DNA of 19,064 bases from Promethearchaeota archaeon (GTDB lineage Archaea; Asgardarchaeota; Lokiarchaeia; Sigyniarchaeales; SOKP01), in assembly GCA_048941015.1 (NCBI GenBank), contig JBHLNZ010000060.1, positions 1-19,064 of the forward strand, given 5' to 3'. The notes under the pieces were generated by a model that searched no databases, was not told the origin of the DNA, and was given only the letters and a program-made list of their open reading frames with translations. Within the stretch, counting starts at the first letter, position 1. Each line of letters opens with the position of its first letter. Below are positions 580-4,634 of this stretch, piece after piece. The position numbers were made by a program, and so were the translations under genes.

Positions 580-2076
580 CTAATATTGGGGTATTCTCTT
601 ATTTTCTTTTTGTTTTTGCTCTATATGTTTATAACAATTATTCTTTTTTGAAAGCGCAATTTTCTCTAGCATTGGAAAACCGGGTTTAACATCTTTTATA
701 TCTTTATACTCAATCAAATCATCTTTGATTAAGTTTTCAAACAATTTCTTTCCTTTTAGAGTTCTTACTATTACTGTATTCCAACCAGGAGGTGAACCTG
801 TTGAGCCAAGGGAAATATCCGCAGATTCTGATGTAAGATCAAAACAAACTTCGCAATCTTCTCGCGCTAAGTTTGAAATTTCTTTTACTGGTATTGTAAA
901 TTCTTCACCTGATTTAGTATAGACAAAAAATTTACCTTTATTAATATCTGTTTTTTTTATATCATCAACGTTCACATTCAGTCGATTACAGATTTCTAAA
1001 AAGGATTGATAAGAAAATGATTCCATACAAAATATGCCAATACGATATTTCACTTTATTTAAGGAAGGAATTCCGATGTTATAAACCTGAGACTTTAATA
1101 GTCCTTGCATCATGCAAGGAACTCCTACAATTGCTATATTGGAGCCATTATCATTTAATTCGTTTAATATTCTAAGATTGGGACTATTAACATATTTAGT
1201 TCCTGAAGTAAGCAAGACATCACTTTTATTTTTAAGTAATTTGGGTTCTGGACGCCAAGGAGTTTGGCTCATTGTTGCACCTAAAGCATAATCTATTTGA
1301 TTATTCTCGAACAGATAATGTAAACAAGTACTAGAAATACCTCCATCTTGACAGATTTCAGAGATTTCTTTTATTTTAGTCCGAGCAGAATATACTCCAA
1401 TATAATGGCCAATATTTGAATAATTTTCTATTTCCGAAGAATCTGATTGCAACATATTTAAAATAGTTATTGGTAAATAAGTTCTGGGGCAATGATAATA
1501 ACATAAGCCACATCGAATACATTTATCCTGATCGATTTTTCCAAACCCATTATATACATTTAAACAGTTTACAGGACAAATTCCTGAGCATAAACCGCAC
1601 CCAGAACACACATTTGATTCAAAAATTATACTAACTGGTTCATAAACAGATTTAGTTTCTGAAAGATTTATGTTCTTTGTCTCAATTAGTATATCTTTAA
1701 ACGTTAATATATTTTCCTCTGAATTTTCTTCTTGAATCTTATCATAAACAATCTTAAAAGCTAATAAATTTTCATTCTTTAATAATTCTAATAAGCTAAG
1801 AGTTCTTCTTATATCAATCTCATTTTTTTTTGAGAATTTCTTTAATAAATTAAAGTCTTTTTTGTTTTTGTTATTATTTAAATAGCATAAAAGAGAAGTT
1901 TTAAGTTGTTCTTCATCAAATGTTTTAAAAAATATATTATAATATTGATCTTCATTGTAAATTCCTGCATTTAGAATATCTTCCTTAGCATCTATTAGAA
2001 CTCGAATTCTATATGAATCTAGGGTATCCGCTAAATTTTTCAAAAATTCCCATGAAATATTTGATTCAGAACCCAT
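580..2076 (-). CDS. Coenzyme F420 hydrogenase/dehydrogenase beta-subunit family protein (FrhB/FpoF-like) with 2x[4Fe-4S] ferredoxin domain and ~145-aa N-terminal extension
   Basis: Ferredoxin motifs CSGCGLCSGICP and CIRCGLCYYHCP. FrhB motifs QDGG, GTKY, VGVPC, IGIFCMESF, CEVCFD..SESADIS.GS.GSPPGWNTVIVRT. Stop TAG. Confidence 0.9.
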   Translation of the reverse strand: MGSESNISWEFLKNLADTLDSYRIRVLIDAKEDILNAGIYNEDQYYNIFFKTFDEEQLKTSLLCYLNNNKNKKDFNLLKKFSKKNEIDIRRTLSLLELLKNENLLAFKIVYDKIQEENSEENILTFKDILIETKNINLSETKSVYEPVSIIFESNVCSGCGLCSGICPVNCLNVYNGFGKIDQDKCIRCGLCYYHCPRTYLPITILNMLQSDSSEIENYSNIGHYIGVYSARTKIKEISEICQDGGISSTCLHYLFENNQIDYALGATMSQTPWRPEPKLLKNKSDVLLTSGTKYVNSPNLRILNELNDNGSNIAIVGVPCMMQGLLKSQVYNIGIPSLNKVKYRIGIFCMESFSYQSFLEICNRLNVNVDDIKKTDINKGKFFVYTKSGEEFTIPVKEISNLAREDCEVCFDLTSESADISLGSTGSPPGWNTVIVRTLKGKKLFENLIKDDLIEYKDIKDVKPGFPMLEKIALSKKNNCYKHIEQKQKENKRIPQY

Positions 2077-2137
2077 TATTGAAATTCTTTTATGAATATA
2101 ATATGTTTAAAATTTCCGAAAACTTTTACTAAAAGTT

Positions 2138-2174
2138 AGTCACCTTCTAACTCAATTTTTCTTAGAAAGTTCAT
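2138..2174 (-). promoter_or_regulatory. SECIS element, eukaryote-like (Lokiarchaeal type), in the 3' UTR of vhuD
   Basis: Minus strand reads AUGA-ACUUUCUAA-GAAAAAUUGAG-UUAGAAGGU-GA-CU. AUGA (2174-2171) and GA (2141-2140) form the core around a 9-bp stem (8 Watson-Crick pairs plus 1 G-U) capped by an A-rich loop. A lower stem UCCGAA/UUCGGA (2185-2180 with 2120-2115) is also possible. It sits directly downstream of genes with UGA at Cys positions. Confidence 0.88.
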
Positions 2175-2606
2175 TCAATTTCGGATTAAAATTTTTTTTG
2201 GTAGAGGAGGCAATTTTTGAATTTTTTTAGTGATATCTTCGACAGATTGAATAAATCTATCAACCTCGGCCGCTGCACAAAAGTATTGCTGAATTCTATC
2301 CTCAGAAATGCCCACATGATTAAAAATTTTCTTTAAAAAACGAATATGCTTATTAGTATTCATATTTGCTTTTCCAAAATCGCACTCACCTTCATGGCAA
2401 GATATTACTGCTACACCATCAGCTCCATTTAGAAAAGCGTCCATAATTAAGTGAAATCCAACTCTTCCTGTACATTTAACTTTAATAAGATGAAACTCTG
2501 TGGAGTAAGACTTTCGAGTAGTTCCTGTTAAATCTGCGACCGAATATCCTCATTTCTCACATCCAAAAGCAATTACTGTTCTTTTTATACTTAATTTTTC
2601 TGACAT
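2175..2606 (-). CDS. mvhD: Selenoprotein hydrogenase iron-sulfur delta subunit MvhD/VhuD, 143 aa, Sec19 (UGA at 2552-2550)
   Basis: From ATG 2606 (SD GAGGTG at 2620-2615): MSEKLSIKRTVIAFGCEK-U-GYSVADLTGTTRKSYSTEFHLIKVKCTGRV...GADGVAVISCHEGECDFG. The UGA is the second position of the MvhD N-terminal CxxC motif. The ORF track shows only the 89 aa from an internal Met. Confidence 0.93.
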
Positions 2607-2627: not shown

Positions 2628-4634
2628 TTAATTTTGAATGGTTCCTTTTGATTTTGTAATTTTTTTTATCTCTGAATCTGGTAACCCAATTCCTTTAAAT
2701 TCCCCTATAAATTGTTTATCTCTATAATAAGTTAATTCAATTGCTCGTGCAGGACAAGAAGTTACGCAAAGTCCGCATCCTTTACATTTAAGATCAGCAA
2801 CTTCTGCAATTCCATCTGATCGAACTTTTATCGCATCGAATTCACAAAGTTTTTCACATCTATGGCATCCCATACAAAGTTCTTCGTTAACTTCAGCAAT
2901 TATTAATTCTTGAGTTAAAATATCATTTGAAAGGAGAGTTGCAGCTTTACTTGCAGCTCCTAAAGCAGAGGATACAGAATATGGAATATTTTTCGGACCA
3001 GTAGCACATCCACATATATAAATTCCATAATCCTTTGTCTCAACAGGTTTTAAGCATCCATGGATTTCTGTTAAAAACCCATTTGGTCCTCTAGTAAGGC
3101 CCATAATTTCAGCAATCTCTAAAGTTCCTTTAGACGGAATCATTCCAGTCGATAGAACGATTAAGTCAAAATTCATACTTGTAACTTGCTCTGATGATAG
3201 TGAGTCAAAGAACAATTTCATTGAACCATCATTGTTTAATTTGATATCTCCTGGTTTGCCTTTTATAAAGTTGATTTTTTGTTCTCTTATTTTTCTATAA
3301 TATTCTTCATTTCCTTTATCCCAAGTTCTAATATCAATATAAAATATGGTGATTTCCATCTCAGGATATTCCTGTTTTAATAATTGAGCATTCTTCAAGG
3401 CAACGTTACAGCAAACGGCAGAACAATATTGATTACCTCTTAAACTACGAGACCCTACGCATTGTATGATTGCAACTTGTTTAGGAATCTTTCCATCTGA
3501 GATTCTATAAACATGACCTCCAGTTGGACCAATTGGACTCAGCATTCTTTCAAGCTCTATTTGGGTAATTACATCCGTGTAAATTCCATATTTAAATTCA
3601 TTAGTTTTCATAATCTGATATTCGTCCCATCCGGTTGCGATAATTATAGCCCCGACTTGTATTTCAATTATCTGTTCTTCTTGATCCATTTCAATAGCTT
3701 CAGCAGGACATATTCTTTCACAATTTTTACAGTCAATGCAAACTGACTTATCAATAACAGCGAATTTAGGAACTGCTTGAGGAAATGGTATATAAATGGC
3801 ATTTCTCTCACCTATTCCCCTGTCAAATTCATTTGGAATTTTAATTGGACATTTAGTTGTGCAAAGTCCGCATCCCGTACACTTTTTTTCGTTTACAAAA
3901 CGAGGATTTTTCCTAATTTTAACCATATAGTTCCCTGTAATACCCTTAAAGTCTATTATTTCGCTGTAAGTTAATAGAGTGATATTTGGATGTTTGTAAG
4001 CATTTACCATGATTGGTGCTAAGACTCATATACCACAGTCATCAGTGGGAAAGATTCTATCTAACTGTGCCATTTTTCCCCCTATTGTAGGTTCTTTTTC
4101 AACTAGATAAACATTGATTCCCTGACCGGCTAAATCTAAAGCTGCATTCATACCCGCAATACCTGCACCAACTACTAAGGCTGCTTTTGTTATAGGAATT
4201 TCTTTTCTAGGTACAGATTCTAATTGTCTAGCTCGATTTATTCCAGCAAGCATAAGTCTTATAGCTTTTTCGGTAGCTTCTTTGATTTTTCCTTGATGAA
4301 CAAAGGAACATTGTTCTCGTAAATTTACCATCTGAAAGTAATAAGGACTTAATCCTGCTTCAACAAGAACAGCTCTATAGGTAGGTTCATGTATCTTTGG
4401 AGTGCATGCGCCGACAACAACTCTGTTTAAGTTTAAATCTAGAATATCGTTCTTTATAATTTGCTGACCAGGATCACTACAAGTGAAACTGTTAATTCGG
4501 GCAACCACTACGTTTGGTAAAGTTTCAACATAATCTTTAACAGTGTCACAATCAATATGTGCACCAATATTAACACCTCATCTACAAATATAAACCCCTA
4601 TCCTTATCTCATCCTTGGTCTGTTTTTCAGACAA
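2628..4634 (-). CDS. hdrA: Selenoprotein heterodisulfide reductase subunit A (HdrA), 668 aa, Sec19 (UGA 4580-4578) and Sec203 (UGA 4028-4026)
   Basis: One frame runs from TTG 4634 (GGGTGG just upstream; alternative GTG 4643) to TAA 2628, broken only by two TGA codons: RIGVYICR-U-GVNIG (HdrA CxCGxNI motif) and DRIFPTDDCGI-U-VLAPIM (HdrA FPTxDCxxC motif). Also GAGIAG FAD motif, CTGCGLCTTKCP, CIDCKNCERICP, CVGSR, YCSAVCC, CMGCHRCEKLC, CKGCGLCVTSCP. Joins track ORFs 4026..4508 and 2628..4010. Confidence 0.95.

Follow-up and report, generated by a model that had tools for sequence, protein, structure and literature searches.

A probable SECIS element with a conserved, predicted three-way junction at its base adjoins vhuD in a Lokiarchaeial hdrA–vhuD operon

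The window, that is, the whole stretch of 19,064 nucleotides that was analysed, carries on its minus strand an hdrA gene, a vhuD gene and an frhB-like gene, with a probable SECIS element directly after the vhuD stop codon. The three genes are as follows:

2628–4634, minus strand: hdrA, a selenoprotein gene that forms one open frame when TGA is read as U
2175–2606, minus strand: vhuD/mvhD, FlpD family, 143 codons (translation and Pfam)
580–2076, minus strand: frhB-like gene with ferredoxin and FrhB N and C domains (Pfam PF04432 and PF04422)

Translated with TGA as U, the hdrA frame runs from a TTG start at 4634 to a TAA stop at 2630–2628 and contains two Sec UGAs, at 4580–4578 (CR-U-GVNIG) and 4028–4026 (DDCGI-U-VLAP). 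The vhuD start at 2606 is 21 bases past the end of hdrA, and the product matches Pfam PF02662 (FlpD) with an E-value of 3.8e-37. Its Sec codon is the UGA at 2552–2550 (codon 19). In both HdrA and VhuD, the UGAs occupy conserved Cys positions. The practical gain for the window is one of annotation, in that neither hdrA nor vhuD is a broken ORF, both being intact genes for selenoproteins. The frhB-like gene starts 40 nt downstream of P1, the helix that closes the base of the SECIS element, which makes the element intercistronic. It thus seems to be an internal part of an hdrA–vhuD–frhB-like run and not to belong to a 3′ UTR at the end of the transcript. At several orthologous loci a similar start (AUG, three variable bases, UCUGA) is found 3′ of the element.

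We identified 25 orthologues of vhuD, with identities of 68–78%. The VhuD of the window has a single Sec and carries a Cys at a second site (VIS-C-HEGEC; 2380–2400, minus strand, codons ∼68–75), where most orthologues and both paralogues in the genome have Sec (VAG-U-YEGEC and VVG-U-RPDEC in the paralogues). Two UGAs are present in 19 of the 25 orthologues. The orthologous genes end in three ways: with a UAG one base before the AUGA motif of the element, with a UGA that abuts the AUGA (as in the window) or with the UGA of the AUGA itself; one orthologue has a UAA stop three bases before the AUGA.

The element itself, read on the minus strand from its 5′ to its 3′ side, consists of the following parts:

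2116–2184, minus strand: whole SECIS, a predicted three-way junction of P1, kink-turn, P2 and P3 (covariance model R1)
2180–2184, minus strand: P1 5′ strand, CCGAA, inside the last vhuD codons, pairing with 2120–2116
2171–2177, minus strand: kink-turn bulged strand, with U2177 (−2b), G2176 (−1b), the bulge A2175 A2174 U2173, then G2172 A2171
2162–2170, minus strand: P2 5′ strand, ACUUUCUAA, 9 bp with 2150–2142, one of them G.U
2151–2161, minus strand: apical loop, GAAAAAUUGAG, 11 nt (column counts)
2142–2150, minus strand: P2 3′ strand, UUAGAAGGU, pairing with 2170–2162
2138–2141, minus strand: kink-turn non-bulged strand, with G2141 and A2140 as sheared-pair partners, C2139 (−1n) and U2138 (−2n)
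2121–2137, minus strand: P3 side hairpin, AACUUUU-AGU-AAAAGUU, with compensatory changes at all 6 modelled pairs
2116–2120, minus strand: P1 3′ strand, UUCGG, invariant among vhuD orthologues though non-coding

An earlier note on this DNA, made from the letters alone, had placed here a eukaryote-like SECIS of the Lokiarchaeal type right after vhuD. This was borne out, as the AUGA (2174–2171), the 9-bp stem, the 11-nt loop and the GA are all as published, and the vhuD stop UGA (2177–2175) abuts the AUGA directly. All the motifs and coordinates quoted in that note, including the hairpin at 2137–2121 and the UCCGAA/UUCGGA pairing, were correct on the minus strand.

The folding check proposed with that claim gave the same picture: unconstrained RNA folding of positions 2200–2100 (minus strand) produced the three-way junction, with an energy of −15.5 kcal/mol. 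This value is unexceptional for AT-rich sequence (z = −1.52), and 15 of 200 shuffled sequences folded equally well. All three helices were recovered by unconstrained folding in only 31 of 55 related elements. It is the comparison among relatives, and not thermodynamics, that excludes chance.

A scan for VhuD across species-representative genomes yielded 26 loci, in MAGs of the Promethearchaeota (Lokiarchaeia). At 25 of these an element with AUGA, 9 bp, 11 nt and RA lies within a few bases of vhuD, and its stems are visibly compensated. The 26 vhuD 3′ regions were aligned with plain MAFFT, with no structure fitting. In this alignment pairing reached 95.7% in the 9-bp stem, where 8 of the 9 pairs showed double changes, 82% in the side hairpin, where 5 of 6 did, and 98.5% in CCGAA/UUCGG. 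The observed pairing was reached by 0 of 500 shuffles, and sliding the partner strand by a single column reduced pairing from 92% to 56–61%. The covariation across vhuD 3′ regions that the earlier note had named as a check was thus present in both P2 and P3.

A covariance model, R1, was built on the 75-nt unit, and a set of 55 distinct elements was assembled from vhuD orthologues, five other SECIS copies of the genome and one other Asgard family. Compensatory changes were seen in the 55-sequence alignment at all 20 modelled pairs, including nine of nine in P2. Pairing was 97.8% for P1, 93.5% for P2 and 83.8% for P3 in this alignment, which is fitted to R1 and so biased towards the structure, although the unfitted MAFFT alignment agrees for P2 and P3. 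Again, none of 500 shuffles reached the observed values, and the slide controls collapsed. P1 is near-invariant in vhuD orthologues, and its covariation comes from the paralogues and other families in the structure-fitted alignment.

These comparisons bear on the simplest alternative, namely that P1 and P3 of the window copy pair by chance, the sequence being AT-rich, and that the core hairpin alone is functional. The modest z-score would be in keeping with this, P3 consists here of A-U pairs and one C-G, and an outer AU helix that had been proposed for the element is itself at chance level (see below). The alternative is contradicted by covariation at every pair, by G+C-rich versions of the helices in orthologues and by the failure of the slide and shuffle controls, and we regard it as very improbable.

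When used as a search model, R1 matched the window element over its full length (85.6 bits, E = 5.5e-17), which was the sole match on the contig. The Rfam SECIS models gave no match, even at E-values up to 10, with either the whole window or the 121-nt region alone. The published Asgard elements are likewise missed by the Rfam SECIS models, according to their authors. No other credible Rfam family was found in the window or the 121-nt region.

The central part of the element is highly conserved. Five letters of the bulged strand (G, A, U, G and A) do not vary among the 55 related elements. G2176, at the centre of the stop codon of vhuD, faces C2139, and the corresponding G(−1b)–C(−1n) closing pair is possible in 55 of 55. 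On the non-bulged strand, the A and the C are invariant (55/55), while the first position is occupied by G in 21 sequences and by A in the other 34. At −2 the pair is A-U in 39 of the 55 elements and U-A in 4, whereas 10 are unpaired; the window copy has U.U there. The core therefore reads as a putative standard k-turn, in which a G-C closing pair would be followed by a 3-nt bulge (R-A-U), tandem G.A/A.G pairs and then P2; in many vhuD copies the second tandem pair is A.A in place of A.G. [quoted passage not shown] In the apical loop, the AAA and the A and G at the final two positions are invariant or nearly so among the 55 sequences, a column pattern that agrees with the text describing the published lokiSECIS logo (PMC4989117). 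Most vhuD SECISes in the same family have AA after the 9-bp stem, a variant noted in the text of Huang 2024 (PMC11227280), and the window has the canonical GA. We also considered a third stub pair, U2178–A2137, which is paired in only 32 of 51 sequences, no better than when A2137 is given to P3, and it was rejected.

Below the core, the earlier note had proposed two pairings. The inner one, CCGAA/UUCGG (98.5% paired), held; with U2185 and A2115 at its outer end it reads (U)CCGAA/UUCGG(A). The outer one, AAAAUU/AAUUUU (2195–2190 with 2114–2109), did not: it was paired in 47.6% of orthologue cells, about the level of A/U-rich flanks. Among the orthologues CCGAA occurs in all three vhuD codon phases (encoding P-K, P-E or I-R-N), which shows that the constraint acts on the RNA. 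In paralogous SECISes P1 covaries, with ACCCC/GGGGU, CUAAA/UUUAG, CUUUA/UAAAG and AUCGA/UCGAU.

The side hairpin, P3, is placed on the non-bulged strand 2 nt after the invariant A-C, and is joined to P1 by a linker of 0 nt in 54 of the 55 elements. Its stem varies among relatives (ACCC/GGGU, ACUC/GAGU, AAUUAU/AUAAUU and others) and its loop holds a G-pyrimidine in 55 of 55, which is GC in 44 and GU in 11, including the window. The base of the element thus appears, as the earlier note had claimed, to form a three-way junction instead of an internal loop, with a side hairpin that is conserved and covarying in both the MAFFT and the 55-sequence alignments.

We asked how far this layout extends. 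Among 151 genomes sampled across the phylum, R1 matched in 25 of 25 same-family genomes and in one genome of another family. The vhuD 3′ regions of four further Asgard families (f19, f16, f8 and f2), folded separately, have the same three-armed layout, with differing stem sequences and with GUAAGCG, ACGCAA or GCA loops. On these folds and alignments, the three-way junction is predicted to be a general Asgard SECIS architecture and not a variant specific to this locus.

A second alternative is that P3 is a separate neighbouring element, such as a 3′-end, stability or processing hairpin or the site of an unrelated protein, and that P1 brackets both. Published minimal models that have no P3 are effective as search patterns, and the P3 sequence is highly variable except for the G-Y of its loop, both of which fit a separate element. 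The position of P3 is nevertheless fixed in 54 of 55 sequences and enclosed by P1, and P3 accompanies SECISes that follow unrelated genes and that occur in other families. A gene begins 40 nt downstream, so this is not a transcript end here. We consider a separate P3 unlikely.

The rest of the genome was then searched with R1. Six full-length copies were found: that of the window, two after vhuD paralogues and three after other small ORFs. The side hairpin is at the same place in every one. Each strong copy is a few nt away from the stop of an ORF, and five of the six follow ORFs with an in-frame UGA, the sixth being ambiguous. Three three-armed SECISes besides that of the window are located at G000:C32:3022-3097 (L062), C130:6292-6362 (L061) and C20:3761-3831 (L060), following ORFs that have no Pfam matches or whose frames are unclear. 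One ORF of this set encodes a protein of 171 aa in which two Sec residues are adjacent (DVGC-UU-EK), another a hydrophobic protein of 67 aa that contains GDG-U-PC, and the third a small Zn-ribbon-like protein ending in ...RFK-U-stop, 41 nt before the AUGA. It is possible that these are new small selenoproteins.

The genome encodes a tRNA-Sec (C119:16590-16682) and SepSecS (474.6 bits, above the cut-off). In the sampled genomes R1 matched only where SepSecS is encoded as well, chiefly in the family of the window. No SBP2-like protein is encoded in the genome, where PF01248 (L7Ae family) has only two genes, with ORFs of 130–134 aa, presumably L7Ae and L30e.

These observations also allow us to weigh a third alternative, in which the element is a general L7Ae-bound kink-turn RNA, for instance one with a regulatory role or of a box C/D-like kind, and not a SECIS. 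The core would be a textbook k-turn with a C/D-like AUGA...GA, and a genome whose only candidates are two L7Ae-family genes, with no SBP2-like protein, would suit such an RNA. The element has neither a RUGAUGA/CUGA box pair nor a guide region, however, and the Rfam snoRNA matches in the window are at chance level and located elsewhere. The siting of the strong copies at ORF stops, five of six with an in-frame UGA, and the restriction of R1 matches to SepSecS genomes among those sampled, argue further against it. We give this alternative very little credence.

Beside the tRNA-Sec and SepSecS genes, in a row at G000:C119:14377-16682 (L114, L117), is a gene for a 226-aa protein that matches NCBIfam NF045535 (‘Sel_Asgard, putative selenocysteine system protein’). 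Sel_Asgard adjoins SepSecS in several Asgard families. It is also found above the cut-off in families that lack SepSecS (19 of 19 genomes in f12, and also f3 and f21), and was present in 0 of 5 in f16, a family with SepSecS and three-armed SECISes. The AF2 model of the protein (pLDDT 92.8) has an alpha/beta domain and a four-helix bundle, for which the structural matches were generic (a Z of 8.3 to the C-terminal domain of Vps28 and of ∼8 to appendage-like domains), and no RNA-binding fold was recognised in the model. A profile match to the uS5 N-terminal region was not significant (E ∼0.1) and an ESM Atlas look-up gave only chance-level matches. Sel_Asgard was therefore rejected as a candidate SECIS reader, its distribution departing from that of SepSecS and its model having no recognisable RNA-binding fold. 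A 795-aa protein at G000:C19:2990-5377 (L125:291-2678), conserved within the family at ∼790–800 aa, combines DDRGK-like, UFL1-like and PCI winged-helix repeats with a C-terminal Sel_Asgard-like domain (residues 599–793) that has a weak VPS28 match. Through this protein, ‘Sel_Asgard’ may be connected with a UFM1/ESCRT-like system and not with selenium.

Taken together, the data favour a SECIS whose secondary structure is a conserved three-way junction, a reading built on comparative sequence analysis to which we assign a probability of roughly 0.84; the figure refers to the identity and secondary structure and not to the role of P3. From its context and homology, the element is taken to be the Sec insertion signal of the Lokiarchaeial hdrA–vhuD operon, of the lokiSECIS class. 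Most likely a single transcript carries this one SECIS together with all three of the Sec-UGA codons that it serves, which lie 0.38, 1.85 and 2.4 kb upstream of it. Judging from the protein families involved, EFSec would deliver Sec-tRNA to a UGA when the mRNA carries a SECIS. The stop UGA of vhuD is also a UGA, and it lies within the kink-turn strand, so that a ribosome reading it must have unwound the element; the element would already be melted at this point and the UGA would be read as a terminator. The argument from a minimal distance for nearby stops that are not recoded is that of Mariotti, as given in the main text (PMC4989117).

The third arm may have a more specific function. P3 would stack on P1, like the extra helix of Lilley's k-junctions, and so fix the kinked geometry, and the invariant G-pyrimidine of its loop could, more speculatively, be a contact point for an archaeal SECIS reader. 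To our knowledge, SBP2 is absent from archaea, and archaeal SelB bound no SECIS in the sole reported test. Asgard SECISes are regarded as a bridge to the eukaryotic element and are modelled just as AUGA-stem-loop-GA. A tentative extension of our reading is that the functional unit of the Asgard SECIS is a k-junction-like three-way junction, locked by P3 on P1 where there is no SBP2, with the G-Y loop as a dock for the reader; we think it possible but would sooner bet against it. The docking partner might be a protein, EFSec or the ribosome, and, if the proposal is true, eukaryotes would later have lost the P3 arm as SBP2 took over. In practical terms, the third arm, the invariant loop dinucleotide and the G-C-closed kink-turn provide concrete mutants and baits for a search for the reader.

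[quoted passage not shown] The examples known are in TPP riboswitches, rRNA and DUF-3268, and are not recoding signals (Wang et al. 2014, PMC4005666; Li et al. 2023, PMC10573300). The element in the window is similar at the level of secondary structure, with P3 on the non-bulged strand after A-C-U and contiguous with the C helix (P1). It is also similar at the level of sequence, where G-AAU-GA opposite GA-C would give tandem G.A/A.G pairs after a short bulged-strand loop. It differs in having a second (−2) pair, and 2–3 unpaired nt between the G and P1. The G-C and the mostly A-U pair before P1 may equally be a c1:L1 interaction or a 2-bp C stub, i.e. a plain k-turn leading into an ordinary junction.

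The SECIS of VhuD in Methanococcales and Methanopyrus, as described in the main text of PMC4989117, serves the same gene as the element in the window. Its main stem has a GAA/A bulge and a G-C clamp in that description (PMC4989117), both of which are absent here; the euryarchaeal asymmetric GAA/A bulge with G-C clamps was found in neither P2 nor P3. In the only experimental test of an Asgard SECIS that we found, a Loki vhuU SECIS was negative in Methanococcus maripaludis, a foreign host (PMC11881835). Judged by its folding energy of −6.9 kcal/mol, that construct apparently contained the core hairpin only. The junction alters the choice of reporter construct, as the Loki element tested so far seems to be a bare hairpin.

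With the eukaryotic type I SECIS, the element in the window shares its 3′ location, an AUGA...GA core of kink-turn type, unpaired A's in the apical loop and action at a distance on several UGAs. Helix II is longer in the eukaryotic element than in the window, where it has 9 bp. The base of the eukaryotic element is helix I and an internal loop, whereas the element in the window has a conserved third helix instead. The eukaryotic SECIS is read by SBP2, which is absent from the genome of the window.

The closest known system is the lokiSECIS. Mariotti et al. 2016 (PMC4989117) describe it in their main text as an AUGA followed by a stem of 9 bp and a loop of 11 nt, with a preference for A at the first five loop positions. 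There, an ‘ultraconserved’ G ends the loop, usually with an A before it, and a GA follows the stem (PMC4989117). The lokiSECIS is further described as adjoining the stop codon, with one element after vhuD common to the always-adjacent hdrA and vhuD, and as acting on UGAs up to ∼2 kb away while nearby stop codons are not recoded (PMC4989117). Every core feature so published is present in the window, in motifs, geometry, position and the sharing of one element by hdrA and vhuD. In the same text the lokiSECIS has, like the element in the window, a stop codon beside or inside it and no SBP2 (PMC4989117). Huang, Xiao & Zhang 2024 (PMC11227280) report this class from hundreds of Asgard genomes, under the name ‘type I eSECIS-like’.

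What these published texts describe is the core, the upper stem and the apical loop; the G-C-closed kink-turn, P1 and P3 with its G-Y loop are absent from the lokiSECIS text. The main text of Mariotti 2016, whose lokiSECIS model was built from a short motif, contains neither ‘lower stem’ nor ‘helix’ (PMC4989117). [quoted passage not shown] None of the terms ‘hairpin’, ‘junction’ and ‘lower stem’ occurs in the text of a review from 2026 (PMC13188914), and the element is termed merely a stem-loop in the text of Sun 2021. The junction is unmentioned in the main text, as distinct from the figures and supplements, of the selenocysteine papers examined, and a search of literature text found none linking SECIS with a three-way junction in the present sense. 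The suggestion in the earlier note of an undescribed variant therefore survives in part: the junction is absent from the main texts examined, but the core is already published and the junction is predicted to be general in Asgard archaea. The SECIS core is thus the known lokiSECIS and the junction at the base is the new part. The element in the window is an ordinary, well-formed lokiSECIS, and its value lies in the junction, which refines the model of the class.
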